Assembly (NCBI GenBank): GCA_963724765.1
Contig: CAVRVY010000004.1
Span: 896,001-960,000, forward strand
Source: an uncultured delta proteobacterium
Lineage (GTDB): Bacteria; Desulfobacterota; Binatia; Binatales; Binataceae
Direction: 5' to 3'
DNA length: 64,000 nt
Below are positions 27,399 to 44,870 of this stretch, piece by piece. The first letter of the stretch is position 1, and every line of letters starts with the position of its first letter. Both the position numbers and the translations under genes were made by a program. The notes under the pieces were generated by a model. It was not told the origin of the DNA. It worked only from the letters and a program-made list of their open reading frames with translations, and did no database searches.

Positions 27399-27414
27399 TG
27401 GCACGCAAATCGCG
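27399..27414 (+). promoter_or_regulatory. Sigma54 -24/-12 motif (no clear sense target)
   Basis: TGGCACGCAAATCGCG: GG-N10-GC with a perfect TGGCACG. Confidence 0.45.
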
Positions 27415-27489
27415 TTCTGTCAGATGAAGCCAGCAAGGCCTGGAGGCGCTTCAGCCGGAGGTTCCTGGAAGGATTGGCGCGCGACCGCC

Positions 27490-29955
27490 TCACAATGCAC
27501 TCACTGCCGTCTCGACTTCATGTGCCAGCTCGACGTAGTCGCCGCCCTTGAGCTCCATCGGCGATCCGAACGCCACTTCGACGGGACCCGGATGAATCAT
27601 CCTTGAGTAGCGATGCAGCACGTGGTCGAGGCCTCTCAAACGGATGGGCACTACGGGCACTCGCAGCCTCGAACCGACCATACCGACCCCCGGTTGGAAC
27701 GTCCCTATTTGCCCGGTCATGGTGCGCTCACCCTCAGGGAAAATCAGGACCGACCAACCTTCACTTACGAGGTCACCGATATGACGCATCGTTTCGCGCA
27801 GTCCAGCTTCCTCTTGCGAAAGCGGAAAGCCATTGAAGAGCAGGGTTGCCAAGTAGTAGTTGGCGCTACTGCTCAGCCATTGCGGACGGGTATGACGCTC
27901 GGGATGGAAGTGGGCGTCGAAAAATTCTTTCCACATCGCGGGAACGACCGAATGGCGCCATGGTGGCGGCAACGCGGCCAGAATCACCGGTGTATCAAGG
28001 TGGCTCTGATGATTCGAAGCGAAGATGACAGGACCTTTTAGAGAATCGAGGACGTCGAGCCCGCGGACCTGGATGTGCGAGCAGAGGTGTGTAATCGGAA
28101 GAATGAGCCCGGCCAGTGCAATCCGCCGGACCAGGCACGCCGGAGCGCTCCGATTCCAGCTCAGCGACACCGCCGGTTCCTGCGGGGGTACCGCTCGAGA
28201 GAGCTGCTCGGTGAGATCGCCGAGCATGCGCGCCTCGCTGAAGGCGCGCTCGTCGAGCGTGACGTTGAAGCGCTCCTCCAACTCGACCATCAGCTCGACC
28301 TGTTCGAGCGAGCTCAAGCCGAGTTCCTTGAGCGTGGTGTCAGGCGTGATTGTCCGATCGGGGGCGTAGCGATGGAGCACAGCGATGATTTCGCTGTGCT
28401 CGCCGGGCGTCGTTTGCGGCAGCGGAGCGCCCGCATCTACCCATTTCTGGATCGTCGGGCGTTTGAGCTTTCCCGTACCTTCGGTGCGGGGCAGGTCCCC
28501 CGTGCTCCACACCGAAACGCTGCGGATCTTCTGATGCTCCTCGAGCTGGTCGTTGGCGCGGCGGACGACCTCATCCTGATCGGCCCCGCTATCCAGGACG
28601 AGCACGGCATGAACACGCTCCCTGCCGACGACGGCGCAGTCGCGAACTCCCGGGATTCGGCTGAGGACCAGTTCGACGTCGTCGGGAAAAACCTTGAGGC
28701 CCTCGGGCGTGACGATCATTTCGCTCAAGCGTCCGCGCACGATGAGGTAGCCGTCGCGGTCGAGCGCGCCGATGTCAGCGGTGTGGAACCAACCGTTCTC
28801 GAAGGCCCGGGAAGCCTCGGCCGGAGCGCCGACGTAACCCGGGGTCACGATATCGCCCCGCACCAGGATTTCGCCGTCGGGCGCGATCCGCAGATCGACC
28901 CCGGGCAACGGTCTCCCCACCGTCCCGGGCTTGAGATGGAACGGATGATTGAAGCTGATGATCGGCGCGGTCTCGGTGAGCCCGTACCCCTGCACGACCA
29001 TGAAACCGAGTTGCCGCCAGAATTCCTCGAGGCCCGTCTCGAGCGGCGCGCCGCCCACGACGAAGCCGAAGAACTTCCAGCCGAAGGGGCGATGGACTTT
29101 GCGATAGCGCCAGCGGCGGGCGAGCCACGATAAGGCATTAGGCTTGATGCGCGCGAGGTCGGGAAACTCGCGCAGCAAGTACTGGCGGAGAACCTGGAGC
29201 ATCTTTGGCACCGCGACCAGGAACGCCACGCGCTTGCCCCGGATTTGGCGGACGATCTCGTGTGGGGCGTAGCCGCGCATGAACACCACGGTCGCCGGCA
29301 CCATCGGCGGAAAGAACGTCGCCAAGGCCTGCCCGAACATGTGGCTGAGCGGCAGCAGGTTGAGCAGCCGGATCGGAAAGAGCGGGCGGACATAGCGGCG
29401 GTACTTGAGCACTTCGCGCTCGATCGGGATCAGGTCGGCGACCACGTTGCGATGGGTGATCACGACGCCCTTGGGGGCCGCGGTCGAGCCCGAGGTGAAG
29501 ACGATTTCAGCGATGTCGTCGGCCGTGAGCGCAACCGCCGACCTGGTATCCGCGCTGCGCGAAAGGTCGAGGTCGGCAAGCCGCCAGACAGGCGCCGCCT
29601 CGCCCAGGCCGTCGCCGCGGACTTCGTCGCCGACCAGGATGGCGCGTGCCTGTACCAGGCCCTGGATGCTGCGCAGCACCTCGGCCGAAGATCGGTAGTC
29701 AATCGGAACGACGATAACTCCACCCAGCAGGCATCCCCAGAACGCGGCCAGCCATTCGGGACGGTTCTCCGACCAGAACAGAACTTTCTCGCCCTTGCCG
29801 ATACCCTCGCGCTCAAGCCGCGCCGCGAAGGCGCGGGCGGCGCCGGCAATTTGCCGATATTGATAGGTCCAGAAGCGGAAGCCGTCGTCGTGGATTACGA
29901 ACTCGGCCGATGAATCGGCGAAGTCGTTGAAGAAGTCGAGCAGGGTTGTGTGCAC
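27490..29955 (-). CDS. Long-chain acyl-CoA ligase / ACP / PlsC acyltransferase fusion
   Basis: AMP-binding FTSGSTAAPKG and QGYGLTE, phosphopantetheine site LGLSSL, acyltransferase NHQSHLD and FPEGERT. Confidence 0.9.
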   Translation of the reverse strand: MHTTLLDFFNDFADSSAEFVIHDDGFRFWTYQYRQIAGAARAFAARLEREGIGKGEKVLFWSENRPEWLAAFWGCLLGGVIVVPIDYRSSAEVLRSIQGLVQARAILVGDEVRGDGLGEAAPVWRLADLDLSRSADTRSAVALTADDIAEIVFTSGSTAAPKGVVITHRNVVADLIPIEREVLKYRRYVRPLFPIRLLNLLPLSHMFGQALATFFPPMVPATVVFMRGYAPHEIVRQIRGKRVAFLVAVPKMLQVLRQYLLREFPDLARIKPNALSWLARRWRYRKVHRPFGWKFFGFVVGGAPLETGLEEFWRQLGFMVVQGYGLTETAPIISFNHPFHLKPGTVGRPLPGVDLRIAPDGEILVRGDIVTPGYVGAPAEASRAFENGWFHTADIGALDRDGYLIVRGRLSEMIVTPEGLKVFPDDVELVLSRIPGVRDCAVVGRERVHAVLVLDSGADQDEVVRRANDQLEEHQKIRSVSVWSTGDLPRTEGTGKLKRPTIQKWVDAGAPLPQTTPGEHSEIIAVLHRYAPDRTITPDTTLKELGLSSLEQVELMVELEERFNVTLDERAFSEARMLGDLTEQLSRAVPPQEPAVSLSWNRSAPACLVRRIALAGLILPITHLCSHIQVRGLDVLDSLKGPVIFASNHQSHLDTPVILAALPPPWRHSVVPAMWKEFFDAHFHPERHTRPQWLSSSANYYLATLLFNGFPLSQEEAGLRETMRHIGDLVSEGWSVLIFPEGERTMTGQIGTFQPGVGMVGSRLRVPVVPIRLRGLDHVLHRYSRMIHPGPVEVAFGSPMELKGGDYVELAHEVETAVSAL

Positions 29956-29993
29956 GCGAGCTGGCCAAGCTGACGATTATTGATGGTAGTTTA

Positions 29994-30009
29994 CGCATGT
30001 GCCGTGCCA
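29994..30009 (-). promoter_or_regulatory. Sigma54 -24/-12 promoter of the ligase fusion gene
   Basis: TGGCACGGCACATGCG, about 40 nt upstream of the start. Confidence 0.65.
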
Positions 30010-30134
30010 GTCACGATGCGAATTACGGAGGAGGGCGCCGTGGACGCCTCGCATGAGGCTGCCGAACGGGCTGCGGACGGTCAGACTTCTTGGAACGAAC
30101 CGACCATCTTCTCGACGTCCCTCAAGGCGATCGG

Positions 30135-30320
30135 TTAAGAAAGCTGGAGACGCTCCATAATTCGGTCGAGCCGCTCTTTGACGACCAGTTCGAGGGAGTT
30201 GGTAAAGAGCAGCTTGCAGCCCGGAGCAGCGCCTTGCGGCAGCTCGGCCATATGGGTGACGAGGCTGCTGTTCACCCAAACCGCCTGATTGGTACCCTGG
30301 TCCGTCAGCTCAAGCCACAT
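30135..30320 (-). CDS. FlbD-like small protein
   Basis: RBS AGGAG. The pattern W-LT...VN..LV....E...L.TN....VVKE....I resembles the FlbD family. Confidence 0.55.
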   Translation of the reverse strand: MWLELTDQGTNQAVWVNSSLVTHMAELPQGAAPGCKLLFTNSLELVVKERLDRIMERLQLS

Positions 30321-30471: not shown

Positions 30472-30487
30472 TGCACCGATCATGCCG
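30472..30487 (-). promoter_or_regulatory. Sigma54 -24/-12 motif upstream of the FlbD-like gene
   Basis: CGGCATGATCGGTGCA (GG-N10-GC), about 150 nt upstream of the start. Confidence 0.45.
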
Positions 30488-30683: not shown

Positions 30684-32063
30684 CTAGCGGATGCTGTGCT
30701 TGTTGAGCAGGCGGTGAAGCGTCTTGCGATCGACCCCGGCCTTGCGCGCCGCCTGCGACACATTGCCGCCCTCGCGCCGGAGCAATTCTGCCACGTAGGC
30801 GGACTCGAGCTCGCTTACCCAGCGCTCCTTGGCTTCTTTCAGAGTAAGTTTGCTGGCGCCCTCGCCGGAAGATGGATGATCCGCCGGCGGCACCACGGTC
30901 CTGAGATGAGCGGGCAGGTCGGCGAGCGTGATCATCTCGCCTTCGGCCAGCGCGCAGGCCCGTTCGATCACGTTTTGCAGCTCGCGCACATTGCCGGGCC
31001 ACGAATACATCTCCAGCGCCGCCATCGCTTCCGGCTCGAATCCCTTGGGCGTCGCTTCGTCACGACGGGCGAATTTCTCCAGAAAGCTCATTGCCAGCAG
31101 TTCGACGTCGCCCTGGCGCTCGCGTAGCGGCGGAAGCGCGATCTCGATGACGGCGAGGCGGTAGTAGAGATCGTCGCGGAACTCGCCGGCCTTCACCAAC
31201 GCTCGCAGGTCGCGATTGGTGGCGCAGACGACGCGAATGTCAACGTCGATCTGCCGCGTGCCGCCCACTCGCCGGATCTGCCGCTCTTGGAGCGCACGCA
31301 GGAACTTGACCTGCAGGCTCAGCGGCAGCTCGCCAATCTCGTCCAGGAACAGCGTGCCGCGATGGGCGCTCTCGATGAGTCCCTGCTTCGCCGCCGTCGC
31401 ACCTGTGAATGCGCCCTTCTCATGGCCGAAGAGTTCCGACTCGAGCAGGTTTTCCGGCAGCGAAGCGCAATCCACCGGCACGAAGGGTTCGGCCGCGCGC
31501 GGGCTGTTGGCGTGGATCGCGCGCGCGATCAGCTCCTTGCCGGTTCCCGATTCGCCGAGCACCAGCATGTTGGCCTCCGAACGCGCCGCCTTGCGCACCA
31601 GCTCGAGCACCTGTTGGAGCGTACTGCTGCGGCCGATGATGTTCTCAAAGCCGAAGATTCCGCGCAGCTGCGCGCGCAGATGGAGGTTTTCCAGCTCCAG
31701 TCGCCGCCGAGTAAGTGCCCGTTCGACCGCAACCTTGAGCTGGTCGATTGAAAACGGTTTGGCGAGATAGTCGAACGCCCCCGCCTTCACCGCCGCGACC
31801 GCGGACTCAAGTGTCGCATGTGCGGTAAGCAACACGACCGGCATCTGCGGATCGATTTCGCGCGCCCTCCTCAGCATCTCCATTCCGTCCAACTCGGGCA
31901 TGCGAAGGTCGGTGAGCAGCAGATCAGGACGCTCCATCCCGAGCAGGCTCAAGGCCTCCCGCGCGTCATTAGTCGTGAGACATTGATAGCCGGCCGCACC
32001 CAGGATGCGCCGGCAAGTCTCGGTCATATCGGGTTCGTCGTCGACGATGAGTATTCGCTGCAC
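30684..32063 (-). CDS. Orphan sigma54-dependent response regulator (AtoC/ZraR-like)
   Basis: REC domain (DLRMP), [24 protein letters not shown] and HTH NVSQAARKAGVDRKTL. No adjacent kinase. Confidence 0.92.
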   Translation of the reverse strand: MQRILIVDDEPDMTETCRRILGAAGYQCLTTNDAREALSLLGMERPDLLLTDLRMPELDGMEMLRRAREIDPQMPVVLLTAHATLESAVAAVKAGAFDYLAKPFSIDQLKVAVERALTRRRLELENLHLRAQLRGIFGFENIIGRSSTLQQVLELVRKAARSEANMLVLGESGTGKELIARAIHANSPRAAEPFVPVDCASLPENLLESELFGHEKGAFTGATAAKQGLIESAHRGTLFLDEIGELPLSLQVKFLRALQERQIRRVGGTRQIDVDIRVVCATNRDLRALVKAGEFRDDLYYRLAVIEIALPPLRERQGDVELLAMSFLEKFARRDEATPKGFEPEAMAALEMYSWPGNVRELQNVIERACALAEGEMITLADLPAHLRTVVPPADHPSSGEGASKLTLKEAKERWVSELESAYVAELLRREGGNVSQAARKAGVDRKTLHRLLNKHSIR

Positions 32064-32162: not shown

Positions 32163-34319
32163 TCACTCGTACCGGAGCGCTTCGATGGGATCGAGCATTG
32201 AGGCTTTGCGCGCCGGATACCATCCGAAGAACAAACCAACTGCCGCCGCGAAGGCAAACCCGCCGATCACCGCGGTCGGTGAAATGAGTGTCGGCCAGCC
32301 AGCCAGTGCGGACAGTACTTTCGACGCGACTATTCCGAGCGCGGCGCCCGCCAGTCCGCCCACGATGCTGAGCAGCGCGGACTCCACCAGGAACTGAAGA
32401 AGTATCTGCAAACGGCGCGCTCCGATCGCCATGCGGATTCCGATCTCTCGCGTTCGCTCAGTAACCGAGACCAGCATGATGTTCATGATTCCAATGCCGC
32501 CGACCAGCAGCGATATCGAGGCGACCGCCGCGACCAGCAGCGTCATGGCCTCGCTGGCGCTTTCCGAAGCTTGCGCGATTTCGCTGAGACTGCGGACGGT
32601 AAAGTCATCGTCCTGACCGGGGCCGATGTGATGACGCCGATGCAGAAACTGCTGGACCTGGGTTTGCGCCGAATCGACCTCCTGGGCGGTGCGCGCCTTG
32701 ATTAGGATCAGGTTCACCACGCCCGAGATTTTTGGCGGGCCACCGAATGGGTTGATGCGCGTGGTGCTCCCTTCATAGACCGGACTGGTCGCACTGGTGC
32801 TCGGCGCACCGAGGTAGGGGTCGAGGACAGGATTGCTCGATCCGGTTGAGCTTGCGGGAACGCTCGCCGTTACCTGCGAGGTGCCCAGTACCTTTCGCTC
32901 CGCGGTGCTGAAGGGAATGATTACGACGTCGTCCTGATCCTGGCCGTAGTTGGACTGGCCCTTGATGCCGAGCACACCGATCACGCGCAGGGGAAAATTC
33001 TTCACCCGAACGATCGTGCCGATCGGATCCTCACCCGGGCCGAACAGATTGTTCACCACCGTCCGTCCGAGCAAGCACACCGGCGCGGCGCTGCGCTCCT
33101 CGTCGTCGGTAAAGGCGCGGCCATCGACCACCGGCCAGTCGCGAATCATGAGATACGCGGGGGTGGTGCCGTTAATGCTGGTGCTCCAGTTCTGATGTGC
33201 GTACACAACCTGCGCCACCTGGCGGTCGGTGTAACTGGTTGCGGCGACGACGTTTATCTCCTTCCGAATCGCCTCGCCGTCCGCGACGGTCAGGGTCGAG
33301 AGACTGCCGGAACCCGCACGAACTCCGTTGGAAGTGGTGGCGCCGGGCAGCACCACCAGGAGATTGGTGCCGAGACTCTGGATCTGCTGTTGCACCGAAT
33401 AGCGCGCGCCATCACCTACCGCGACCATCGCGATCACCGCGGCGACTCCTATGAAAATGCCGAGCATGGTCAAAGCAGCGCGAGTCTTGTTGCGCCTGAG
33501 CGCTCGTGCCGCGGCACTCAGAGCCATGGGGCCAAATCTACGCGCGCGGGTTCGCCCGGCACTGGCAGTAGCCGGGGTCGGAGACGCGGGCTTCGCCGTG
33601 ACAGGCTCTCTGCTGGCAGCCGCTGCTTCAGCGCGAGCCTTTCGAACGTCGGAGATAATCGCGCCATCGCGGAAGGTCACCACGCGGTCCGTATACGCGG
33701 CGACGTCCGGATCGTGGGTCACCACCAGCACCGTGAGCCCCTGCTCACGGTTAAGCCGACTGATGATCTCCATGATCTCGGCTGAGTTCCTCGAGTCCAG
33801 ATTTCCGGTGGGCTCGTCGGCCAGCAGGATCGTCGGCTGGTTGATCAGCGCGCGCGCTATCGCAACGCGTTGCTGTTGTCCGCCAGAGAGCTGGTTCGGT
33901 TTGTTGTTTTCGCATCCCTGGAGCCCGAGCATTTCGAGCAGCAGCTCGGCGCGTTGCTCGCCCTCGCCGATTTGCTCCGAGTAAAAGAGCGGCAACTCGA
34001 CGTTCTCGAGCGCGGAGGTTCGCGAAAGCAGGTTGAAAGTTTGAAAGATGAAGCCAATTCGACGGCCGCGGATCGCCGCCAGCTCTTGCTCCCGAAGCGA
34101 GGCGACGTCGACTCCTTCCAGCTCGTAGTGGCCATCGGTGGGACGATCGAGGCATCCGATGATGTTCATCAGGGTCGACTTGCCCGAACCCGACGCGCCC
34201 ATGATCGCAATGAACTCGCCACGCTCGACGCAAAGTGAGACGTTCTGCAAGGCGCGCACTTCGACCTCACCCATCCGGTAGGTCTTGTTCAGCCCTTCAA
34301 TATGGATCACCGCCGACAT
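32163..34319 (-). CDS. macB: MacB-type ABC transporter (ATPase-permease fusion)
   Basis: GASGSGKS, LSGGQQQR, ADEPTGNLD, LTMLGIFIGVAAV, GGIGIMNIMLVSVTERTREIG and DPIEALRYE. Confidence 0.92.
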   Translation of the reverse strand: MSAVIHIEGLNKTYRMGEVEVRALQNVSLCVERGEFIAIMGASGSGKSTLMNIIGCLDRPTDGHYELEGVDVASLREQELAAIRGRRIGFIFQTFNLLSRTSALENVELPLFYSEQIGEGEQRAELLLEMLGLQGCENNKPNQLSGGQQQRVAIARALINQPTILLADEPTGNLDSRNSAEIMEIISRLNREQGLTVLVVTHDPDVAAYTDRVVTFRDGAIISDVRKARAEAAAASREPVTAKPASPTPATASAGRTRARRFGPMALSAAARALRRNKTRAALTMLGIFIGVAAVIAMVAVGDGARYSVQQQIQSLGTNLLVVLPGATTSNGVRAGSGSLSTLTVADGEAIRKEINVVAATSYTDRQVAQVVYAHQNWSTSINGTTPAYLMIRDWPVVDGRAFTDDEERSAAPVCLLGRTVVNNLFGPGEDPIGTIVRVKNFPLRVIGVLGIKGQSNYGQDQDDVVIIPFSTAERKVLGTSQVTASVPASSTGSSNPVLDPYLGAPSTSATSPVYEGSTTRINPFGGPPKISGVVNLILIKARTAQEVDSAQTQVQQFLHRRHHIGPGQDDDFTVRSLSEIAQASESASEAMTLLVAAVASISLLVGGIGIMNIMLVSVTERTREIGIRMAIGARRLQILLQFLVESALLSIVGGLAGAALGIVASKVLSALAGWPTLISPTAVIGGFAFAAAVGLFFGWYPARKASMLDPIEALRYE

Positions 34320-34326
34320 TGGATGC

Positions 34327-35536: not shown

Positions 35537-35552
35537 AGCACTGGCTATGCCA
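35537..35552 (-). promoter_or_regulatory. Sigma54 -24/-12 promoter of the macA-macB-regulator operon
   Basis: TGGCATAGCCAGTGCT. Confidence 0.6.
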
Positions 35553-36786: not shown

Positions 36787-37245
36787 TCAAGCGTGCGCCA
36801 CCTTTTCGATATGCTCCCGCAGTTTCATCGCCTGGTCCGACGAGCGTTTGCGAGCGTCTTCGCTGGCCTCAAGTTCGGCTTTGACCGCCTCGAGAGACTC
36901 GCCGAGGGTACGGACGCGCGCCCTTAGCTCTTCGCCCTGCTGCGTGGTCTCGCGCTCACGGCGGTCCAGATCCTTGAGCTCGTCTTCGAGGGTCGAAATG
37001 AGAACAGAATCTGCCCGAAGGCGAGCCAGTTCACTTACGTGATCTCGCAGCGCCTTTGCCTCCGCGAAAATCTGTTCGCGTTCGCGGGCGGCTTGCGACT
37101 GTTGCATCATGGCCGTTTCGATCGCCAGTTGCGCTTGCTCCACCTGGTTCCGGAGTTGCGTGATTCTGGTCGCACCATCGATGCCGTTCTCGTTCAGTCT
37201 CCTCATACTTTCCTGCAGGGCTCGGAGCAATGTCTCGTTTCTCAT
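36787..37245 (-). CDS. Coiled-coil hypothetical protein
   Basis: RBS GAGAGGG; heptad-like E/R/Q/L-rich sequence throughout. Confidence 0.6.
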   Translation of the reverse strand: MRNETLLRALQESMRRLNENGIDGATRITQLRNQVEQAQLAIETAMMQQSQAAREREQIFAEAKALRDHVSELARLRADSVLISTLEDELKDLDRRERETTQQGEELRARVRTLGESLEAVKAELEASEDARKRSSDQAMKLREHIEKVAHA

Positions 37246-38620
37246 AGTCTTTCCCTCTCTCCCAAGTTGATTCCTCAGCCTTATGCGTGAAGGCTTGATT
37301 CGGTTGAGCGCCTGGCGCAAGAATCCGTTTGACTTCATCGTCGCTGATCTGGTGAAAGTCCCGATAGAATTGTCCTACGGCAAAGAAATTCTCAGGAGTT
37401 TCCAGACAGATGATCTTGTCGGCGTCGTCGCGCAGCGCCTCGAGAGTTTCCGCGGGCGCGACCGGAACCGCCAGTATGACCTGCTTTGGTTTCGCCCGGC
37501 GCACTCCGCGAAGCGCCGCCCGCACCGATGCTCCGGTGGCGATCCCGTCGTCGACGACGATCACGGTCTTGCCTGCCAGTGGCACCGCGGGTTCCGTGCC
37601 GCGGTATTCGAGTTCGCGCCGCTTTGTCTCCTTGAGCTGCCGCTCGATTTCGCGGTTGATGTAGCCGTCCTCGACGCCGAGCGATTCGATCACTTCCTGG
37701 TTGAAGATCGCGTGCGGATGATCGCCATCGACCACCGCGCCGATTCCTAGTTCAGGCTGACCCGGCGCTCCGAGCTTGCGCACGACCACGATATCGAGAG
37801 GCGCCCCGAGGACTTCGGCGACTTCGCGCGCCACGGGCAGACCGCCACGTGGAATGCCAAGCACAACCACCCGCTCGCCCCTGTAAGAGGCCAGCGCGCC
37901 GGCCAGCATCCGCCCGGCCTCTACGCGGTTCGAAAACACGATCGGATTGCCGGTTGAGACGCGGGCTGCCGGCGTGCTTGCCAGATGGCGGACAAACCAT
38001 TCGTTTGCGAGGTTCGCCACCTGCTCCAGCGTTCCCGCTTCCTCAAACAGATGGGTGGCGCGGGGTACGATCTGCAGCGATTTCTCGCAGCGCAGGAGAC
38101 GGTACGCCTTCTCGTTGAGCTCGATTACCCCGTAGTCCCTGCCGCCTACGATAAGCAGAGTGGGCGCCCTGACGTCGGCCAGATGGCGCAGCGCAAGGTC
38201 GGGACGCCCGCCGCGCGAAACCACGGCGCGAATAGTATAGTCCTGGGCGGCGGCCGTCAGCGCGGCCGCGGATCCGGTGCTGGCGCCGAAATATCCCAGT
38301 GCGTAGGCGTTCGTGTCCCGGCCTGCCCTCAGCCACCTCGTCGCGTCGCCAAGCCGATGGGCGAGGAAGTCGATGTCGAAAACGTTCTCGCGGTCGGTCG
38401 CCTCCTCGTCGGTCAGGAGGTCGAACAGCAGTGTGCCGATGCCAGCCTGTTGAAGCGCCTGCGCGACATACTGGTTACGCGGGCTCAGGCGGCTACTGCC
38501 GCTGCCGTGCGCGAATAATACGATCCCGATGGCGCCCTCGGGCATGACCAATTCGCCCTCCAAGCGCACCGAATCGGAAGGTATCAACTCTCGGCTTTGG
38601 CTTATACGTCGCTTCGTCAT
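37031..38620 (-). CDS. Dienelactone-hydrolase-like alpha/beta hydrolase fused to a phosphoribosyltransferase
   Basis: FAHGSGSSRLSPRN, GYFGASTG, VVSRGGRPDL and HLFEE, followed by FSNRVEAGR.L, GIPRGG, VVDDGIATG and AVGQFY. The tail after about 37310 looks like read-through. Confidence 0.88.
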   Translation of the reverse strand: MTKRRISQSRELIPSDSVRLEGELVMPEGAIGIVLFAHGSGSSRLSPRNQYVAQALQQAGIGTLLFDLLTDEEATDRENVFDIDFLAHRLGDATRWLRAGRDTNAYALGYFGASTGSAAALTAAAQDYTIRAVVSRGGRPDLALRHLADVRAPTLLIVGGRDYGVIELNEKAYRLLRCEKSLQIVPRATHLFEEAGTLEQVANLANEWFVRHLASTPAARVSTGNPIVFSNRVEAGRMLAGALASYRGERVVVLGIPRGGLPVAREVAEVLGAPLDIVVVRKLGAPGQPELGIGAVVDGDHPHAIFNQEVIESLGVEDGYINREIERQLKETKRRELEYRGTEPAVPLAGKTVIVVDDGIATGASVRAALRGVRRAKPKQVILAVPVAPAETLEALRDDADKIICLETPENFFAVGQFYRDFHQISDDEVKRILAPGAQPNQAFTHKAEESTWERGKDYEKRDIAPSPAGKYEETERERHRWCDQNHATPEPGGASATGDRNGHDATVASRPRTRTDFRGGKGAARSRK

Positions 38621-38633: not shown

Positions 38634-38649
38634 AGCATCAGCTGTGCCA
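38634..38649 (-). promoter_or_regulatory. Sigma54 -24/-12 promoter of the hydrolase-PRT gene
   Basis: TGGCACAGCTGATGCT, about 14 nt before the ATG, so near-leaderless if real. Confidence 0.6.
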
Positions 38650-38905
38650 CAGGAGTGACGTCCGACTCGCCGGTTTGGCACCATTTGCTATCGCCCCACT
38701 GGGCAGAAAGGAGACAGGACTGGTCCCGGAGGAGCCATTCTTCTGAACTGCACCGCAGGGATTATCAAGTCAGGGCGCCAGCCTCGGCAAGCGAATCCAT
38801 ACCGGCCGAATTCCCGGCCACGTCTCCGGATTACGCCAGAACTGTATCCGCCACGCCGCGTTTCCGGCATCCGACGATCAGGGCAAGTTTAGAATCAGAT
38901 GCTAG

Positions 38906-38921
38906 TGGCACGGGGACTGCA
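38906..38921 (+). promoter_or_regulatory. Sigma54 -24/-12 promoter of the hemerythrin-like gene
   Basis: TGGCACGGGGACTGCA, about 37 nt before the ATG. Confidence 0.68.
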
Positions 38922-38957: not shown

Positions 38958-39449
38958 ATGGAGACCAAACAAGTACCGCAAGTAGCGAGCAAAGAGTCGC
39001 AGATGAAGTTCACTCTGGCGAAGCTGGCCGACGAGGATGCCAGGCTGAGGCGGCCGATCCTGGAGGCGGCCTCGGTCGCCGCCCGGCTCTCGCTCGACCC
39101 CGGCAACCTTGAGTTGCGTGAAAGAGCCGCCAAGGCATGGTCGCGGATCGATTCCGTCATCGCGAGACACCTCGACAAGAAGGAACGCACGGTGCTGCCG
39201 TGGGCCGAGTCGCTTGCGGACTTTCCCGGCCAACTGGTCGATCGCGCGCGTAAAAAGCACGAACAGATCACGGCACTGCACGACATCATCGCCACACACT
39301 CCTTTGAAAAGGGGCGCGACGAAGAGGTCGCCGCCGAGGCGCGCAACCTCTGCGTTTACGCGACAACGCTCGACGATCTCATAGCCGGCGAGGAACGCGA
39401 ACTGTTCCCGGTGATGCGCCGGGTGCTCTTTCGTCACCCGCAAACCTGA
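38958..39449 (+). CDS. Hemerythrin-like (HHE) domain protein with degenerate ligands
   Basis: Four-helix pattern H..KKE..VLP / KKHEQI / GEERELFP. Confidence 0.7.
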   Translation: METKQVPQVASKESQMKFTLAKLADEDARLRRPILEAASVAARLSLDPGNLELRERAAKAWSRIDSVIARHLDKKERTVLPWAESLADFPGQLVDRARKKHEQITALHDIIATHSFEKGRDEEVAAEARNLCVYATTLDDLIAGEERELFPVMRRVLFRHPQT

Positions 39450-39624: not shown

Positions 39625-40812
39625 ATGAGCAGGCAACCCAGGAATCCCCCCATGGCATCAAACGAAACGAAATCCATCGAGCTGTTCAGGGTCGCCGGAG
39701 TACAGATCGAGATCGACTATTCCTGGCTAGTGATTTTTTTCCTCGTGCTGTGGAGTTTATCCGCCGGATATTTTCCGCAAGAATATCCCGGCCAGCGGCC
39801 GCTCGACTACTGGGTCGTCGGCCTCGTGGCGACACTGTTTTTTTTCGCCTCGGTTTTGCTCCATGAGCTTTCCCATGCGGCGATGGCGAACCGGCTCGGG
39901 GAGAACGTCGATCGAATCACGCTTTTCATCTTCGGCGGAATCGCACGTCTCTCGGGCGAGCCGAAAAGCGCCAATAGCGAGATCAAAATAGCGGGCGTCG
40001 GACCACTAACCAGCGTGGCCCTCGCGCTTGCCTTCTGGTTGATTTCGAATGCCATCGGCCCAGCCGCGTCGCTGTGGACTGGGGTCTTTCGCTACCTCGC
40101 CTTCATCAATCTCGCGCTGGCGCTGTTTAATCTTCTGCCGGGGTTTCCGCTCGATGGCGGCCGACTGCTGAGGGCGGTGCTATGGAGGCGATGGGGTGAT
40201 CTGCAACGGGCGACGGCGCGCGCGGCGCAGTGGGGCAGTGGTATCGGCTGGGGGCTGATCGGTCTGGGTTCGATGGAGATTTTCGAGGGTGCGCTGGTCG
40301 GTGGCCTCTGGCTGATTTTCATCGGCCTCTTTTTGCATGGCGCGGCGGCGAGCGGTTACCAGGGCACGGTTATCGAGCAGGCCCTCGAGCACGTCCGCGT
40401 GAGCGACATCATGACTCGCGAGCCGGTGACGCTGTCACCCGAGGTGTCTGTCGGGGAAGCCATCGAACAATACTTTCTGCGCTTCGGTTACGGCGGCTTT
40501 CCCGTGACTTCGGATGGACACGTACTGGGCGTGCTGTCGCTATCGCACGTTCGTCACTGCCAGCCGCAGGAGCGAGCGCATAAGAGAGTGCGGGACATAA
40601 TGCTCCCTCTTAGGCCGGGCCTCGAAATCGCACCTGGGGCGAGCACGCTCGATGCGCTGCACAAGATGAACGAAGCGGACAGCGGCCGTCTGGTCGTCAT
40701 CGATGGCGGCAAGATGGTGGGATTTATCACGCGCACCGGCGTCGCGCGTATCGTGCAGATGAAGGCGCAGCTTGGCGGCAAGGCCAATGTTCCGAAGGAC
40801 AGAGAGACGTGA
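39625..40812 (+). CDS. Site-2 protease (M50) with a CBS pair
   Basis: HELSH, AGVGP and FNLLPGFPLDGGR, followed by two CBS domains. Confidence 0.93.
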   Translation: MSRQPRNPPMASNETKSIELFRVAGVQIEIDYSWLVIFFLVLWSLSAGYFPQEYPGQRPLDYWVVGLVATLFFFASVLLHELSHAAMANRLGENVDRITLFIFGGIARLSGEPKSANSEIKIAGVGPLTSVALALAFWLISNAIGPAASLWTGVFRYLAFINLALALFNLLPGFPLDGGRLLRAVLWRRWGDLQRATARAAQWGSGIGWGLIGLGSMEIFEGALVGGLWLIFIGLFLHGAAASGYQGTVIEQALEHVRVSDIMTREPVTLSPEVSVGEAIEQYFLRFGYGGFPVTSDGHVLGVLSLSHVRHCQPQERAHKRVRDIMLPLRPGLEIAPGASTLDALHKMNEADSGRLVVIDGGKMVGFITRTGVARIVQMKAQLGGKANVPKDRET

Positions 40813-40819: not shown

Positions 40820-40835
40820 TGGCACGACAATAGCT
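40820..40835 (+). promoter_or_regulatory. Sigma54 -24/-12 promoter of the small gene and pcm fusion
   Basis: TGGCACGACAATAGCT, about 24 nt before the ATG. Confidence 0.65.
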
Positions 40836-40858: not shown

Positions 40859-41041
40859 ATGCCCGTAAATGTAGTCAAGACGCCCGCGGAAGAAATCGCG
40901 TGGGAGCGCGCAAAGGCTCGCGCTCGGGAGCAGTATCCGGAGGCTACCGGCGAACGCTTTTATCGGATTGTTATGGCCATCTACAAGAAAATGGTTCATT
41001 ACCAACCCCGATCCGCGCGCTATCGCCAGAGTGCGCGTTAA
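40859..41041 (+). CDS. Small helical hypothetical protein (60 aa)
   Basis: RBS GAGG; MPVNVVKTPAEEIAWERAKARAREQY...YRIVMAIYKKM. Confidence 0.6.
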   Translation: MPVNVVKTPAEEIAWERAKARAREQYPEATGERFYRIVMAIYKKMVHYQPRSARYRQSAR

Positions 41042-41105
41042 TCGAGAGGTCGCGGGCGATGCAGAAAAAACAAATGTCCCAGGCACTTATGCGAGGTGGC
41101 GAGTT

Positions 41106-43097
41106 ATGCTTGACCTGACAAGCCAGCGTCTTCTGATGGTTCGCGATCAGATTGCCGCGCGCGGAGTGCGCAATCCGGCAGTGCTCGGGGCGATGCGACG
41201 TGTTCCACGGGAGGCTTTTCTCCCGGAAGAATTAGCTGAGTTCGCATACCAGGACACACCCCTGCCGATCGAGGCCGACCAGACCATCTCGCAGCCGTAT
41301 ATCGTTGCGCTGATGATCGAGAGCGTCGAACCGCGCGCCGGCGATCGCGCTCTCGAGATTGGAACCGGCTCGGGATACGCGGCGGCAGTGCTCTCGGAAG
41401 TGGTGCGCGAGGTCTATACCATCGAGCGGCACGCACAATTGGCCAAGCTGGCAAGCAAGCGCTTAGCTGGCCTGGGATATACGAAAATCAAGGTCCTTCA
41501 CGGCGACGGGACCCTCGGTTGGCCCGCGCATGCTCCGTATGACGTGATCGTGGTGACAGCCGGCGGTCCCCAGGTGCCAAAGCCCCTCCTTGAACAACTG
41601 GCCATCGGGGGCCGTCTCATCATTCCGGTAGGCGATACGTCGCGGCTGCAACGCCTGGTGCGAATTACGCGCACCGCCGAAGATCACTTCGATGACGAGG
41701 ATCTTGGCGATGTTCAGTTCGTTCCATTGATTGGAGCGGAAGGTTGGGATTCCGCGGTCGCCAAACAGGCTCGCCCATCTACCCGGGGCAGCCGTCCAGT
41801 GACGATCGCCAAGCTGATCCGCGAGACGGCTGCGCCTCTCGCTGACATTGAGCAGGCCGAGATCGGCCCTTTGCTGGAGCGGATGGCGGGGGCGCGGGTG
41901 GTTCTGCTAGGCGAGGCGACCCATGGTACGTCGGAGTTCTATCGGATGCGGGCGCGCATCACGAAGGAACTGATCCTGCGGCACGGTTTCAACTTCGTCG
42001 CCGTCGAGGCTGATTGGCCGGATGCCGCCAGAATCAATCAGTATGTGCGTCATGCTCCGCCACGGCAGGAGCAATGGAAGGCTTTCGCCCGCTTCCCGAC
42101 CTGGATGTGGCGAAACCATGAAGCGTTGGCACTGGTTGAGTGGCTGCGCGCGTGGAACGCGGAGGTGCCGGACCCGGAGCGGCGCGTCAGCTTCTATGGA
42201 TTGGATCTCTACAGTCTCTTCACTTCAATCGGGGCCGTTATCGACTATCTGGGCAGCGTTGATCCGGCGATGGCCGCAATCGCGCGCAGCCGGTATGCAT
42301 GCCTGAGTCCTTGGGAACACGATCCTGCGGTGTATGGCCGCGCAGTGCTCAGCGGGCGCTATCGAGACTGCGAAGACGCAGTCGTCGCGATGCTACGCGA
42401 TATGCTCAATCGGCGGATCGAATATTCCCAGCGTGACGGCGATCGCTTCTTCGACGCCGCGCAGAACACTCGCTTGGTCGCCGCAGCGGAGCGGTATTAC
42501 CGCGTGATGTATTACGGCTCTGTCGATTCCTGGAATCTGCGCGATCAGCATATGTTCGACACTCTTGAGCGGTTGTTCGATTTCCACGGCCCTGGCAGCA
42601 AGGGCATAGTCTGGGAGCACAACTCACACGTCGGCGACGCATCGGCCACGGAGATGGGCGCGCGTGGTGAGCACAACGTAGGACAGTTATCTCGCGCGCG
42701 ATTCGCCGAGTCGGCATTTCTGCTTGGCTTCGGTACCGACCACGGTACGGTCGCGGCAGCATCGGACTGGGACGGCCCCATGGAGGTCAAGCGCATACGT
42801 CCATCCCATGAAGCCAGCTATGAGCGGCTATGCCACAACTCTGAGGTCAAAGCGTTCATGTTGCACCTTAGAGACCCGGCCAGACAGACGCTGCGCGACG
42901 AACTGGAGGCAGCCCGCCTGGAACGTGCAATCGGCGTGGTCTATAGGCCCGAATCCGAAATCATGAGTCACTATTTCCAGGCCTGCCTGCCCCGACAGTT
43001 CGACGAGTACATCTGGTTCGACGAAACTCGCGCGGTGTCGCCGCTTCCATCGGTCGCCGCCCCCGGTGTCCCAGAGACGTTTCCATTCGGGGTTTAA
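41106..43097 (+). CDS. pcm: Protein-L-isoaspartate O-methyltransferase fused to an erythromycin-esterase-family domain
   Basis: VPREAF, QTISQPY, LEIGTGSGY and APYD, followed by LLGEATHGTSEFY, VEADWPD, WNLRDQHM, HNSHVGDA, ERAIGVVY and ETFPFG. Confidence 0.9.
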   Translation: MLDLTSQRLLMVRDQIAARGVRNPAVLGAMRRVPREAFLPEELAEFAYQDTPLPIEADQTISQPYIVALMIESVEPRAGDRALEIGTGSGYAAAVLSEVVREVYTIERHAQLAKLASKRLAGLGYTKIKVLHGDGTLGWPAHAPYDVIVVTAGGPQVPKPLLEQLAIGGRLIIPVGDTSRLQRLVRITRTAEDHFDDEDLGDVQFVPLIGAEGWDSAVAKQARPSTRGSRPVTIAKLIRETAAPLADIEQAEIGPLLERMAGARVVLLGEATHGTSEFYRMRARITKELILRHGFNFVAVEADWPDAARINQYVRHAPPRQEQWKAFARFPTWMWRNHEALALVEWLRAWNAEVPDPERRVSFYGLDLYSLFTSIGAVIDYLGSVDPAMAAIARSRYACLSPWEHDPAVYGRAVLSGRYRDCEDAVVAMLRDMLNRRIEYSQRDGDRFFDAAQNTRLVAAAERYYRVMYYGSVDSWNLRDQHMFDTLERLFDFHGPGSKGIVWEHNSHVGDASATEMGARGEHNVGQLSRARFAESAFLLGFGTDHGTVAAASDWDGPMEVKRIRPSHEASYERLCHNSEVKAFMLHLRDPARQTLRDELEAARLERAIGVVYRPESEIMSHYFQACLPRQFDEYIWFDETRAVSPLPSVAAPGVPETFPFGV

Positions 43098-43121
43098 CTG
43101 CTCAGAGCAATACTCAACGAA

Positions 43122-43716: not shown

Positions 43717-43812
43717 AATCCTGAAAGCGCGTCACTCAGGACCTGGGTCGGCAATTGCCGCCCCTTTTGCGCAAGCCGCGTCGCCTAGCGAAGAGAACCT
43801 CGCTTTCTCAGA

Positions 43813-44271
43813 CTAGCTTTTGTCGGCGTGCTCGGTTCGCCCTTCGTTTCGAATCGTGAGAACCGGACAGGTCGCTTTGCGCACCACCGCCTCAGCCACG
43901 CTGCCGAGAAAAAAGTGAGCGAGTCTGCCACGGCCGTGGGTGGCCATCACCAGCAGGTCGGGTTTGAATTGTTCGACGGCCTGCAAGATGCCACCGACGA
44001 CGTCGCCGATGAACACGATCGACTCGTACCCGACCCCGCCGAGCTTCTGTCCTGCGATCTCGCGCAGCTTGACCGTCGCCGCCTTCTCTTGGCCCCTATA
44101 GACGTCAGCGGGCATCGGAAAGTCTCCGAATTGCGCCACCAGCGGGACGGCGTGTACCAAAATGACCGTAGCGCCAAAATGGCGGGCGATTTCAGCCGCC
44201 TTGTCCAGAGCCACCAGTGAATTCTCACTGAAGTCGATCGGACACAGGATTTTGCGGTAGGGAAATGCCAT
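43813..44271 (-). CDS. Universal stress protein
   Basis: ILCPIDFS, DLLVMATHGRG...[10 protein letters not shown] and CPVLTI; RBS GGAGG. Confidence 0.93.
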   Translation of the reverse strand: MAFPYRKILCPIDFSENSLVALDKAAEIARHFGATVILVHAVPLVAQFGDFPMPADVYRGQEKAATVKLREIAGQKLGGVGYESIVFIGDVVGGILQAVEQFKPDLLVMATHGRGRLAHFFLGSVAEAVVRKATCPVLTIRNEGRTEHADKS

Positions 44272-44542
44272 GGCCGTAATCGCCTCCGTTAATATCTTCG
44301 GCACCCTTCCAAGAACATAACATTGTAACATCCACGAAGCCTAGCGACCTGGCGAAATCGCGCCGACCCCAGAGCGCATCTCACCGAGAAAGCGACCGCA
44401 AAGTGCGAGACCGAAGTCGTATGCAGAGTATTGCTCGCGGCCGACAGGCGCTTGTAGTCACTGGCGCGCCCGCGCCTCCCGACTGCCTGGATTAAAAAGC
44501 TCGTCTCGACCCGCTCAACAACTCTCCGATTAGAAACTACTG

Positions 44543-44749
44543 AAGGTTCACGCGTACACAAGAACTTACGCTCAAGGTCGCCTGAGCAGTCGCGCCAAGT
44601 ACCTCGTTGATATTGTTCTGGCAAAGCAGCTCCTGACGATGGATGCCGCACGGCTTCGCAGCGCGCTCGCGGGAGTCTTCGAGGGACGGCGCCAGCAGCC
44701 TCTTCCCGATCGGTTCCCTGCCCCGCCGGATGAGTGGGCGGTACCATAA
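44543..44749 (+). pseudogene. AbiEii/AbiGii nucleotidyltransferase toxin remnant
   Basis: Not in the ORF track. KVHAYTRTYAQGRLSSRAKYLVDIVL...DAARLRSAL..VF..R..QPLP..FPAPPDEWAVP* matches the KxHAY...SRxKDLxD C-terminal region, with KD changed to KY. Confidence 0.7.
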
Positions 44750-44854
44750 TTGGTGTTGCGTTTCCGCCACGCGTTTGAGCACGCGGATTTGCCTTCTGGA
44801 ATACATAGATTTGCGCTGAGCATGATTGGTCGCGTAAGCGACTTTTGTCGCAAG

Positions 44855-44870
44855 TGGCATGAAGGTTGCG
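44855..44870 (+). promoter_or_regulatory. Sigma54 -24/-12 motif upstream of the ExeA-LysM gene
   Basis: TGGCATGAAGGTTGCG, near consensus with TTGC, preceded by the palindrome GCGAC-TTTT-GTCGC. Confidence 0.55.

Follow-up and report, generated by a model that had tools for sequence, protein, structure and literature searches.

A cluster of predicted sigma-54 promoters around an NtrC-family activator, probably one node of a dispersed stress network

We analyze nine sigma-54-like motifs in an 18-kb stretch (27-45 kb) of a 64-kb window (the whole stretch of DNA under analysis), set around the gene of an NtrC-family response regulator that we term EBP-A. In our assessment six or seven of these motifs probably work, and the cluster probably represents one node in a sigma-54 stress network that is dispersed over the genome and has several activators, not a closed regulon. 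The initial annotation had proposed a self-contained, autoregulated sigma-54 regulon; mostly conserved promoters, rpoN, an intact activator and plausible autoregulation sustain part of that proposal, but not self-containment under one activator, with paralogues, a probable partner kinase and other activators lying elsewhere. It is these paralogues and this kinase, together with promoters kept in genomes without EBP-A, that lead us to describe the cluster as a node.

Motif specificity and conservation

The host is a soil bacterium, and the stretch holds genes of stress and low-oxygen type. Predicted features are given below by window coordinates, strand and description.

27399..27413, +, weak sigma-54-like motif TGGCACGCAAATCGC (softened PWM 11.8), pointing into the 3' end of the convergent Aas-like gene
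27490..29955, -, Aas-like fusion: AMP-binding, PP-binding, acyltransferase (Pfam, NCBIfam)
29995..30009, -, Aas-like sigma-54 promoter TGGCACGGCACATGC (PWM 18.8), GTG start 39 nt on
30473..30487, -, doubtful motif CGGCATGATCGGTGC (softened PWM <9)
30684..32063, -, EBP-A, NtrC-family response regulator: REC, AAA+, HTH_8 (Pfam)
32163..34388, -, MacB-type ABC transporter (Pfam, NCBIfam)
34327..35517, -, MacA-type membrane-fusion protein (Pfam; start placed by alignment with G016)
35538..35552, -, sigma-54 promoter of macA-macB-(EBP-A) TGGCATAGCCAGTGC (PWM 20.0)
35686..35709, no strand, palindrome GCGCAAATTGCGC, candidate activator site, unique in the genome, between the divergent macA and DUF2267 promoters
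35771..35785, +, DUF2267 sigma-54 promoter CGGCATGGTTCATGC (softened PWM 13.2)
35814..36239, +, DUF2267 protein (Pfam)
36254..36691, -, OsmC-like protein (Pfam)
37031..38620, -, hydrolase-PRT: alpha/beta-hydrolase and phosphoribosyltransferase fusion (Pfam)
38635..38649, -, hydrolase-PRT sigma-54 promoter TGGCACAGCTGATGC (PWM 20.7)
38706..38742, +, upstream element GAAAGGAGACA...AGGAGCCA, two AGGAGNCA boxes 21 nt apart
38906..38920, +, sigma-54 promoter of hemerythrin, probably also of M50-CBS, TGGCACGGGGACTGC (PWM 16.3)
38958..39449, +, hemerythrin-domain protein (Pfam, homologous loci)
39625..40812, +, M50 metalloprotease with CBS pair, M50-CBS (Pfam)
40820..40834, +, sigma-54-like promoter with atypical -12 element TGGCACGACAATAGC (softened PWM 11.8)
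40859..41041, +, conserved 60-aa ORF, first gene past the 40820+ promoter (no Pfam family)
41097..43097, +, PCMT-Ere: PCMT (isoaspartyl methyltransferase) and erythromycin-esterase-like fusion (Pfam, NCBIfam; start approximate)
43813..44331, -, universal stress protein, USP (Pfam)
44855..44869, +, sigma-54 promoter TGGCATGAAGGTTGC (PWM 17.8), 217 nt upstream of AAA_22-LysM
45087..46598, +, AAA-LysM: AAA_22 ATPase and LysM domain, ExeA-like (Pfam, NCBIfam)

The nine YGGCAY-N7-GC matches reported in the initial annotation (27399+, 30009-, 30487-, 35552-, 35771+, 38649-, 38906+, 40820+ and 44855+) were all recovered, each between Pfam-mapped genes, as were its two divergent pairs, macA/DUF2267 (35552-/35771+, separated by 219 nt) and hydrolase-PRT/hemerythrin (38649-/38906+, 257 nt). 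This loose pattern has almost no specificity: the genome holds 1778 matches, at 0.37 per kb in intergenic and 0.32 per kb in coding DNA, and 8 of the 17 matches in the 27-45 kb stretch lie within genes. Its excess in the whole window (46 against 23 expected) is partly explained by nine matches falling in the repetitive segment 5143-5460. Under stricter models, TGGCAY-N6-TGC occurs 6 times in the 18-kb stretch against 0.38 expected (114 genome-wide), PWM scores of at least 14 occur 5 times against 0.35 (106 genome-wide) and softened PWM scores of at least 11 occur 10 times against 2.1 (638 genome-wide), with Poisson tails for these stricter models of 3e-6 to 7.5e-5. Across the genome, intergenic DNA carries the strict motif at 5-fold the density of coding DNA. 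The intergenic, strand-correct enrichment that had been suggested as a check is thus found, the stretch standing about 15-fold above expectation with the extended -24/-12 consensus, and the reported lack of comparable motifs in the flanks extends to the rest of the 64-kb window, where no PWM match of at least 12 occurs. As many or nearly as many PWM matches are present in the 18-kb stretches starting at C4:708360, 726039, 716686 and 847905.

Five to seven of the nine sites are strong under the extended consensus, and every strong site is intergenic and on the correct strand. The first base is C at 35771+ and 30487-, and the -12 element reads AGC at 40820+ and CGC at 27399+. From the GC to the likely start codon there are 39 nt for Aas-like, 20 for macA, 28 for DUF2267, 14 for hydrolase-PRT, 37 for hemerythrin, 24 for the 60-aa ORF (not PCMT-Ere itself) and 217 for AAA-LysM. 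At 27399+ an ATG lies 10 nt after the GC, opening a 60-aa ORF of no family, and at 30487- it lies 9 nt after, with downstream ORFs that have no Pfam family; both distances are too short for a sigma-54 start site, and the two sites are weak or doubtful. A softened PWM scan found no motif upstream of the OsmC-like or USP genes.

Conservation, also suggested as a check, is apparent in relatives, where sigma-54 motifs precede hemerythrin, hydrolase-PRT, AAA-LysM, macA, DUF2267 and Aas-like orthologues. All nine hemerythrin loci carry TGGCAY-N5-(A/C/G)TGC 51-70 nt upstream of the ATG, with invariant -24/-12 bases and diverged flanks. For hydrolase-PRT, whose start ATGACGAAGCG is conserved, a site scoring at least 17 is found in 8 of 13 loci, a weak one in 2 and none in 3. 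The 13 AAA-LysM loci comprise seven strong motifs, three degenerate ones, one unrelated weak match and two without a motif; an alignment of 7 genomes shows no change in the -24/-12 bases, and the spacer is conserved as well, so a constraint other than sigma-54 may act on this sequence. The macA promoter is kept upstream of macA in G016, CGGCATGGTT-ATGC at the DUF2267 promoter is identical before the G011 orthologue, and a DUF2267 paralogue at C4:674.6 kb has a site with a PWM score of 19.6. For Aas-like, a motif at similar distance is present in two of five loci (G000, G012) and absent before the gene in G010 and G018, both of which hold EBP-A. The 40820+ promoter occurs at three loci (G000, G024, G001), and G024 and G001 also hold the small ORF, with synonymous changes and its sequence kept.

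Taken together, these comparisons support the view that most of the nine motifs behave as genuine, conserved sigma-54 promoters. We consider it very improbable that they arise by chance or are silent binding sites that play no part in expression, as the low specificity of the loose pattern, the character of 27399+ and 30487-, and the E. coli sigma-54 sites that PMC4591121 describes as intragenic and non-productive might suggest: the 15-fold enrichment of the strict motif, the placement of all strong sites, and the -24/-12 invariance amid diverging flanks in the hemerythrin loci and the AAA-LysM alignment argue against it. The one RNA library matching the sequence yielded two short identical contigs, too little for start sites.

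EBP-A and the assignment of activators

EBP-A is intact (Walker A at residue 170, GAFTGA at residue 217) and matches no named type, falling below every NCBIfam equivalog cut-off (AtoC 503 vs 714, PEP-CTERM regulator 454 vs 503, NtrC 444 vs 559). Its position as the last gene of the macAB operon, noted in the initial annotation, is borne out: the gene follows macAB after 99 nt and has no motif of its own, which makes autoregulation through the macA promoter plausible. The genome encodes one rpoN and has 31 Sigma54_activat matches, 3 of them weak, and thus about 28 activators. Six promoters appear solid (Aas-like, macAB-EBP-A, DUF2267, hydrolase-PRT, hemerythrin(-M50-CBS) and AAA-LysM), and 40820+, before the small ORF and PCMT-Ere, would be a seventh, atypical at -12 and conserved. 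Each of these promoters would serve its own short transcription unit within a stress gene set and be opened by an ATP-dependent enhancer-binding protein, and EBP-A, probably co-transcribed from the macA promoter, would be positively autoregulated.

That EBP-A alone activates all nine promoters, as a self-contained autoregulated regulon, seems to us improbable. EBP-A does lie within the cluster behind sigma-54-driven macAB, and its orthologues adjoin the same gene families elsewhere: five relatives have them next to members of the gene set, as does a Rokubacteria MAG (EBP-A 63% identical; order kinase, EBP, sigma-54 motif, three USP genes, CBS), the neighbours including a divergent hemerythrin gene (G001), M50-CBS (G010), USP and hemerythrin-OsmC-DUF2267 (G011) and macAB (G016). 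Among 16 other genomes of the genus, five have both EBP-A and hemerythrin, one EBP-A alone, one hemerythrin alone and nine neither. Set against this, two of the nine motifs are doubtful, and repeated searches for an upstream activator site common to the cluster's promoters found none, so no promoter is linked to EBP-A by sequence. The hydrolase-PRT/hemerythrin pair has an element of its own, whose AGGAGNCA boxes lie about 59 and 80 nt before the -24 element of hydrolase-PRT. It is conserved in G001 and in G005, where both EBP-A and EBP-B, a second activator, are absent, and the genome holds just three such two-box sites, each next to a hydrolase-PRT or hemerythrin paralogue.

Promoters of hydrolase-PRT, hemerythrin and AAA-LysM are likewise kept where no EBP-A orthologue was found: the hydrolase-PRT motif in G005, G019, G021 and G023 (best EBP-A matches 44-49% identical), the AAA-LysM promoter in G003, G004, G005 and G013. 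The small-ORF promoter is present in G024 without EBP-A. Paralogues of hydrolase-PRT, hemerythrin, DUF2267, USP, OsmC and M50-CBS are found at C4:652-675 kb, C2:53 kb and C4:1650-1702 kb; several of these copies have promoters of this type and lie close to other activators. The probable kinase and receiver are on another contig, C1, away from EBP-A; a PAS histidine kinase and a receiver flank EBP-A in G007, G010, G016, G017 and G018.

Somewhat less remote, though still unlikely, is that the promoters are real but depend on other activators, whether the EBP-B family or further members of the roughly 28. EBP-A would then regulate just its own operon with macAB, or genes elsewhere, and would owe its position to rearrangement in a variable region. 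The genes around EBP-A are ordered differently in each relative, and an operon joining it to macAB is seen only in this genome. EBP-B lies 2-8 kb from EBP-A in G001, G010, G011 and G012, the two being 40% identical overall with differing HTH helices, and the box GAAAGGA[GA]ACA, present four times in the genome, adjoins the hydrolase-PRT/hemerythrin loci and also abuts the EBP-B promoter. Retention of the boxes in G005 without an EBP-B orthologue speaks against this reading, as does the placement of EBP-A beside hemerythrin (G001) and beside M50-CBS and USP (G010, G011). The "island" of the initial annotation holds as a variable region adjoining tRNA-Val with flanks common to G001; an integrase was looked for in this variable stretch and none was found. 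The multi-activator network that we favour would probably have three or more dedicated activators, among them EBP-A, the receiver-less EBP-B (C4:660 kb) and the EBP-B copy at C1:340 kb.

Relation to known regulons and the likely signal

EBP-A resembles classical NtrC/AtoC/ZraR activators in its REC, AAA+ (GAFTGA) and HTH_8 domains and in its probable autoregulation from a sigma-54 promoter, and differs in scoring below the named equivalog cut-offs and in lacking an adjacent kinase in this genome. The C1 kinase has a PAS domain closest to the solved haem-PAS domains of FixL and DosP (E 4e-12 to 4e-5), with a His aligned to that of the FixL H-D motif; the positions that we take to be the haem-pocket Arg positions of FixL are unmatched.

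One of the closest known systems is that of NmpR in Myxococcus xanthus, an NtrC-like regulator that, according to PMC11841059, induces genes for CBS, USP and hemerythrin proteins under hypoxia. As there, the cluster combines an NtrC-like regulator with sigma-54 promoters in separate units holding these families. In the same account NmpR's own operon is among its targets, its regulon includes a P-type ATPase (here one lies with a CBS gene at the C1 kinase locus), and signalling through NmpRSTU is multi-component with a haem-based kinase, where we find several activators, a PAS kinase and a receiver; hydrolase-PRT, PCMT-Ere, M50-CBS, MacAB and Aas-like are additions to the regulon as described there. 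Myxococcal relatives are about 45% identical to EBP-A, the level of any NtrC-family protein, and so do not mark EBP-A as an NmpR orthologue. The NmpR site GCGCA-N5-TGCGC is not enriched here (20 vs 14.3 expected) and among the promoters occurs only near the palindrome at 35697, which GAGCA-N5-TGCGC overlaps. A further difference is the lack of a protoglobin kinase here: a search for the Protoglobin domain in this genome found none. In G016 a protoglobin-AAA+-HTH activator adjoins EBP-A.

The DosR (DevR) regulon of Mycobacterium tuberculosis likewise includes, as described in PMC4410610 and PMC5309233, USPs, the CBS protein Rv2626c, the M50-type metalloprotease Rv2625c/Rip3, the PRT protein Rv0571c and Rv2030c, a PRT and erythromycin-esterase-superfamily protein. 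Plasmid pTK1 of Sphingobium sp. TKS brings together Ere, hydrolase, PRT, PfkB, CBS, USP, BON, P-type ATPase and PAS kinase; at that locus no intergenic sigma-54 motif scores at least 10, and all five weak matches lie in genes. DosR-type systems employ a small response regulator, DosR acting at sigma-70 promoters, whereas the units of this cluster stand behind -24/-12 promoters and require an AAA+ activator. The likeness to DosR and NmpR targets appears to hold at the level of Pfam families only.

By family membership, the USP, CBS, M50-CBS, PRT-hydrolase, erythromycin-esterase-like and hemerythrin proteins of the gene set match hypoxia and dormancy regulons. The FixL-like PAS kinase on C1 probably phosphorylates EBP-A, and with it as probable partner the likely signal reaching this node of the network would be low oxygen or redox state.

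Genomic setting of the cluster

Between 27 and 45 kb of the window, the genome under study (G000; 5.4 Mb in four contigs, C1-C4, with 62% G+C) carries a cluster of predicted sigma-54 promoters on a hypoxia- or dormancy-type gene set which, judged by its sequence and that of related genomes, is real and conserved. The window itself spans C4:896001-960000.

Features in and around the cluster (window positions; all but the first two lines assigned with Pfam)
Left of the cluster: tig-clpP-clpX-lon-hupB and tRNA-Val
18832-18906: tRNA-Val
24812-25243: USP gene
In or around the cluster: GlgX-type isoamylase gene
27490-29955, minus strand: Aas-like AMP-binding/PP-binding/acyltransferase gene
30684-32063, minus strand: EBP-A, a REC-AAA+-HTH_8 sigma-54 activator
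Minus strand: MacB and MacA genes
Plus strand: DUF2267 gene
Minus strand: OsmC gene
Minus strand: hydrolase-PRT gene (alpha/beta-hydrolase-phosphoribosyltransferase fusion)
Plus strand: hemerythrin gene
Plus strand: M50 protease gene with CBS pair
41097-43097, plus strand: PCMT-Ere gene
Minus strand: USP gene between PCMT-Ere and AAA_22-LysM
Plus strand: AAA_22-LysM gene
Minus strand: CBS-pair gene after AAA_22-LysM
In or around the cluster: PAS hybrid kinase with three receiver domains
In or around the cluster: CHASE3-4xPAS kinase

The description of this region as an island in the initial annotation holds in part. The region adjoins a tRNA and its content varies between conserved flanks, which in the relative G001 are likewise hupB-tRNA-Val on one side and PhyH/arginine decarboxylase/amidase on the other, enclosing about 43.5 kb of partly different content versus 36.4 kb here. 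From tRNA-Val (18906) to approximately 55 kb, G+C content is slightly lower than in the outer flanks (0.55-0.63 versus 0.64-0.68). No integrase was found, eight ORFs in 19-22.9 kb have no Pfam match, and the tRNA-Val 3' half recurs in part at 20768-20815, 1.9 kb past the tRNA, bounding only those 1.9 kb. In G001, G003, G004, G005, G007, G013 and G016, similar tRNA 3'-half fragments are found close to AAA_22-LysM or PCMT-Ere genes; AAA_22-LysM genes are multi-copy, with 1-7 matches per genome. A tRNA-Val(cac) called by ARAGORN inside macA (35320-35408, minus strand) is probably a false call, since the Rfam scan, with tRNA as its sole match, gives no confirmation.

Promoter motifs, their density and their conservation

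The initial annotation had listed nine YGGCAY-N7-GC motifs, and each was recovered between genes, with a spacing of exactly 10 nt from its GG to its GC doublet.

Predicted sigma-54 motifs (window position, strand, score with the position weight matrix, PWM)
30009, minus: strong, PWM 18.8
35552, minus: strong, PWM 20.0
38649, minus: strong, PWM 20.7
38906, plus: strong, PWM 16.3
44855, plus: strong, PWM 17.8
35771, plus: softened PWM 13.2; first base C
40820, plus: softened PWM 11.8; -12 element AGC
27399, plus: softened PWM 11.8; directed into the Aas-like gene, which is convergent with it, at that gene's 3' end
30487, minus: softened PWM below 9

The loose pattern has 1778 matches genome-wide and is hardly denser between genes than in coding DNA; of the 17 that lie in 27-45 kb, 8 fall within genes. 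Its total for the whole window (46, with 23 expected) is inflated by nine CGGCAY-N7-GC matches in a repetitive stretch of about 320 nt at 5143-5460. By itself this pattern says little; it is the extended sigma-54 consensus, TGGCAC-N5-TTGCW, that parts signal from noise. The form TGGCAY-N6-TGC occurs 114 times genome-wide and 6 times in 27-45 kb, where 0.38 are expected. The genome-wide PWM scan likewise bore out an enrichment, with 5 of 106 matches scoring at least 14 in this interval (0.35 expected) and, for the softened PWM, 10 of 638 scoring at least 11 (2.1 expected); since the PWM was derived from 66 intergenic matches of the genome itself and is thus seeded by the motif that it scores, these scores rank sites and are not independent evidence. 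Poisson tails for the enrichment range from 3e-6 to 7.5e-5. Genome-wide, the strict motif is five-fold denser in intergenic than in coding DNA, a figure that is approximate because the crude codon-usage caller used for the gene map leaves 22% of the genome uncalled. Comparably or nearly as dense 18-kb stretches start at C4:708360, 716686, 726039 and 847905, and C4:650-1000 kb holds 23 of the 106 PWM matches. High-scoring motifs also occur in C4:726000-741000 (726039+, 726305+, 740202- and 740787-), where the codon-usage caller found almost no genes and the composition may be foreign.

As to the claim that the motifs point at start codons, seven of the nine are intergenic, in the correct orientation for a gene and at a workable distance from it. 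Transcription from sigma-54 promoters starts approximately 11-13 nt past the GC; at 27399+ and 30487- the ATG lies 9-10 nt past the GC, at or before the expected start site. For hydrolase-PRT a conserved ATG lies 14 nt past the GC here, versus 24-28 nt in a paralogue, G001 and G005, so that its message would be almost leaderless if transcription started at the usual sigma-54 position. The predicted promoter at 40820+ serves not PCMT-Ere directly, which starts near 41097, but a 60-aa ORF that directly follows it (40859-41041, plus strand; MPVNVVKTP...). This ORF has a GGAGG-type ribosome site, matches no Pfam family and is conserved in G024 and G001, where it shows synonymous changes and the motif is present as well. 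A longer PCMT-Ere call, from 40968, begins about 43 codons too early; the fusion itself (protein-L-isoaspartate O-methyltransferase and erythromycin-esterase-like domain) is conserved in several relatives, and in G014 it contains a TAG codon, the match there falling into two pieces. Contigs from a peat metatranscriptome contain two identical pieces of the cluster (37419-37554 and 39297-39565), although such contigs cannot show starts and may reflect DNA carry-over. Scans for terminators (22 versus 16.4) and for sigma-70 promoters (2 versus 4.6) did no better than on shuffled sequences.

Conservation is the main support for the predicted promoter function. The motif is retained, to differing extents, upstream of hemerythrin, hydrolase-PRT, AAA-LysM, macA, DUF2267, Aas-like and small-ORF orthologues. 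Before hemerythrin, TGGCAY-N5-(A/C/G)TGC lies 51-70 nt from the ATG at all nine loci (three paralogues in this genome and six loci in the genus), within diverged surrounding sequence. Among 13 hydrolase-PRT loci, eight score at least 17, two have weak C-initial motifs (G002, G017) and three have none (G012, G018, G022); the 13 AAA-LysM loci comprise seven strong and three degenerate motifs, an unrelated weak match (G012) and two loci without one (G014, G018). Alignment of AAA-LysM across seven genomes shows invariant -24/-12 bases, though the invariance extends to some of the spacer and to a block immediately upstream. The Aas-like motif is found at two of five loci, the small-ORF motif at three, and those of macA and DUF2267 at the one orthologue of each, with 35771+ identical letter for letter before the DUF2267 orthologue of G011.

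Activators and the extent of the network

The region had been proposed to form a self-contained regulon under its own activator. EBP-A does possess the REC-AAA-HTH architecture ascribed to it, with a receiver, Walker A (GESGTGKE, residue 170), GAFTGA (residue 217) and HTH_8. It scores below the curated cut-offs of all NCBIfam equivalogs compared (AtoC, NtrC, NtrX, ZraR, GlrR and others). The genome encodes one Sigma54_DBD match, rpoN (C3:568723-569199), and 31 Sigma54_activat matches, 28 of them solid. Because the 99-nt gap between macB and EBP-A contains neither a motif nor a convincing terminator, co-transcription of EBP-A from the predicted macA promoter is plausible.

Orthologues of EBP-A with at least 65% identity occur in 9 of 40 relatives, and their neighbourhoods speak for a link between this putative activator and the stress gene set. 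EBP-A adjoins hemerythrin in G001, M50-CBS in G010, macAB in G016 and a USP gene in G011, where hem-OsmC-DUF2267 lies nearby, and in five genomes it adjoins a PAS kinase and a single receiver. A scan of public genomes with EBP-A, near relatives excluded, yielded one informative locus, in a Rokubacteria MAG: a kinase gene precedes a 63% EBP-A orthologue, after which come a sigma-54 motif, USP genes, three in number, and finally a CBS gene. The other 79 matches were generic NtrC-family proteins at 40-50% identity. Among the genomes of the genus, five have both EBP-A and hemerythrin, two have one of them and nine have neither, counts drawn from genomes that are related to one another.

EBP-A is thus a plausible local activator of the cluster, but a closed regulon under EBP-A alone did not hold up: no common upstream site was found, several of the promoters occur where no EBP-A was found, other C4 stretches are of similar motif density, and paralogues and further activators lie elsewhere. 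In G005 hemerythrin and hydrolase-PRT are predicted to be sigma-54-driven, yet neither EBP-A nor EBP-B, a receiver-less activator, was found. The hydrolase-PRT motif is likewise present in G019, G021 and G023, the AAA-LysM motif in G003, G004, G005 and G013, and the small-ORF motif in G024, all in genomes where no EBP-A was found. The genome under study has paralogues of hydrolase-PRT (75% identity), hemerythrin (84% and 83%), DUF2267, USP, OsmC and M50-CBS, with strong motifs at C4:665 kb, 667 kb, 674.6 kb and C2:53 kb. Two in-frame TAG codons were reported inside the hydrolase-PRT paralogue at C4:663521-665083, which may therefore be a pseudogene; its promoter is intact. EBP-B, at C4:660 kb, has its own sigma-54 motif, and its HTH helices differ from those of EBP-A. 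The two activator genes lie 2-8 kb apart in G001, G010, G011 and G012, whereas the module is split here. A second EBP-B copy lies at C1:339.5-342.7 kb with a PAS kinase at C1:340846-342162 (67% identical to that of G010) and a receiver (74%), adjoining CBS and P-type ATPase genes and again accompanied by sigma-54 motifs. The cluster is hence part of a dispersed, multi-activator network.

Searches for a shared activator site, all of limited sensitivity, comprised k-mer enrichment in eight intergenic regions, which gave nothing convincing; all-against-all short BLAST of 90 upstream regions, which returned only orthologue- or paralogue-specific blocks; a perfect-arm dyad search of 27 regions, with counts within or just above those of shuffles and GC-rich dyads; and a mismatch-tolerant seed scan of 15 EBP-A-linked regions, in which the best observed seed equalled the best of 12 shuffles. 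TGTATCC/GGATACA, near the macA and hemerythrin promoters, was set aside, as GGATAC occurs 1393 times in the genome. The palindrome GCGCAAATTGCGC (35686-35709, between the divergent macA and DUF2267 promoters) is unique in the genome and missing from the other promoters. A one-mismatch copy, GTGCAATTTGCGC, lies 117 nt upstream of a sigma-54 motif that precedes kdpA by 209 nt (C4:967957-968096); an activator gene is located at C4:976 kb, and the kdp operon may be sigma-54 dependent.

The hydrolase-PRT/hemerythrin region contains an element of its own at 38706-38742, in which two AGGAGNCA boxes, GAAAGGAGACA followed by AGGAGYCA, are spaced 21 nt apart. The genome has three copies in all (here, at C4:665192 and at C2:53289), each beside a hydrolase-PRT or hemerythrin paralogue, and the element is conserved in G001 and G005; a related box lies directly against the EBP-B promoter. 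A reading of the element as peptide-coding was set aside, as the paralogues differ, by eye, mainly by non-synonymous changes.

Relation to hypoxia and dormancy regulons

The mycobacterial DosR regulon contains the same gene families as the cluster. Two reports (PMC4410610, PMC5309233) place in it USPs, the CBS protein Rv2626c, the metalloprotease Rv2625c, the PRT Rv0571c and Rv2030c, which combines PRT and erythromycin-esterase-superfamily domains. Matching gene families also characterize the NmpR regulon of Myxococcus, a hypoxia-induced NtrC-like/sigma-54 system according to its description (PMC11841059). The NmpR type has tandem GCGCA-N5-TGCGC sites upstream of its sigma-54 promoters, whereas the cluster lacks this arrangement: the site is not enriched (20 matches with at most one mismatch versus 14.3 expected), and only the match at 35686 is intergenic within the cluster. 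A Protoglobin haem kinase heads the NmpR-type relay, whereas the genome under study has no protoglobin (PF11563) match. In G016 a 555-aa activator (L018:17589-19256) carries Protoglobin (27.7 bits against a cut-off of 25) at its N-terminus, fused to AAA+ and HTH_8, has a sigma-54 motif upstream and adjoins the EBP-A orthologue. The PAS domain of the C1 kinase most closely resembles the solved haem domains of FixL and DosP, and one of its His residues, a putative haem ligand, aligns with the His retained ahead of the D in FixL.

Large plasmids often carry homologues of hydrolase-PRT (275 records, of which Ralstonia accounts for 133). Sphingobium pTK1 carries the same set (Ere, hydrolase, PRT, PfkB, CBS, USP, BON and P-type ATPase), but there it is accompanied by a PAS kinase and by small response regulators, and sigma-54 motifs are missing from its intergenic DNA, which makes the sigma-54 wiring a lineage-specific trait. 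A literature search of limited coverage turned up no account of a gene set of like composition under sigma-54 in Alphaproteobacteria. USP genes (COG0589) are reported to be enriched among predicted sigma-54 targets in a comparative study (PMC12316311).

Tentatively, and with rather less than even confidence, we propose that this genome has a dormancy/hypoxia gene set equivalent to the DosR type and that all of it is under sigma-54 control, with several activators and a FixL-like kinase above them. Nearly every gene would have its own -24/-12 promoter, some of them nearly leaderless, and the gene copies would occupy four or more loci. The promoters would be opened by no fewer than three dedicated activators (one of receiver type, one that lacks a receiver and is present twice, and, in a sister species, a relative fused to a protoglobin), acting below the FixL-like haem-PAS kinase.

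If this proposal is correct, enhancer-dependent control has replaced NarL-type control throughout a widely shared stress module. In the absence of an activator a sigma-54 promoter stays silent, which makes for tight on/off control. The loci offer testable material: the promoters and their predicted start sites, the three activator candidates, the putative haem-PAS kinase, the conserved upstream element with its two boxes and the conserved 60-aa protein without known family. Gene-by-gene sigma-54 control of a dormancy set would show a soil bacterium holding costly survival functions off until a signal arrives, and would show one conserved gene module wired to different regulators across lineages.
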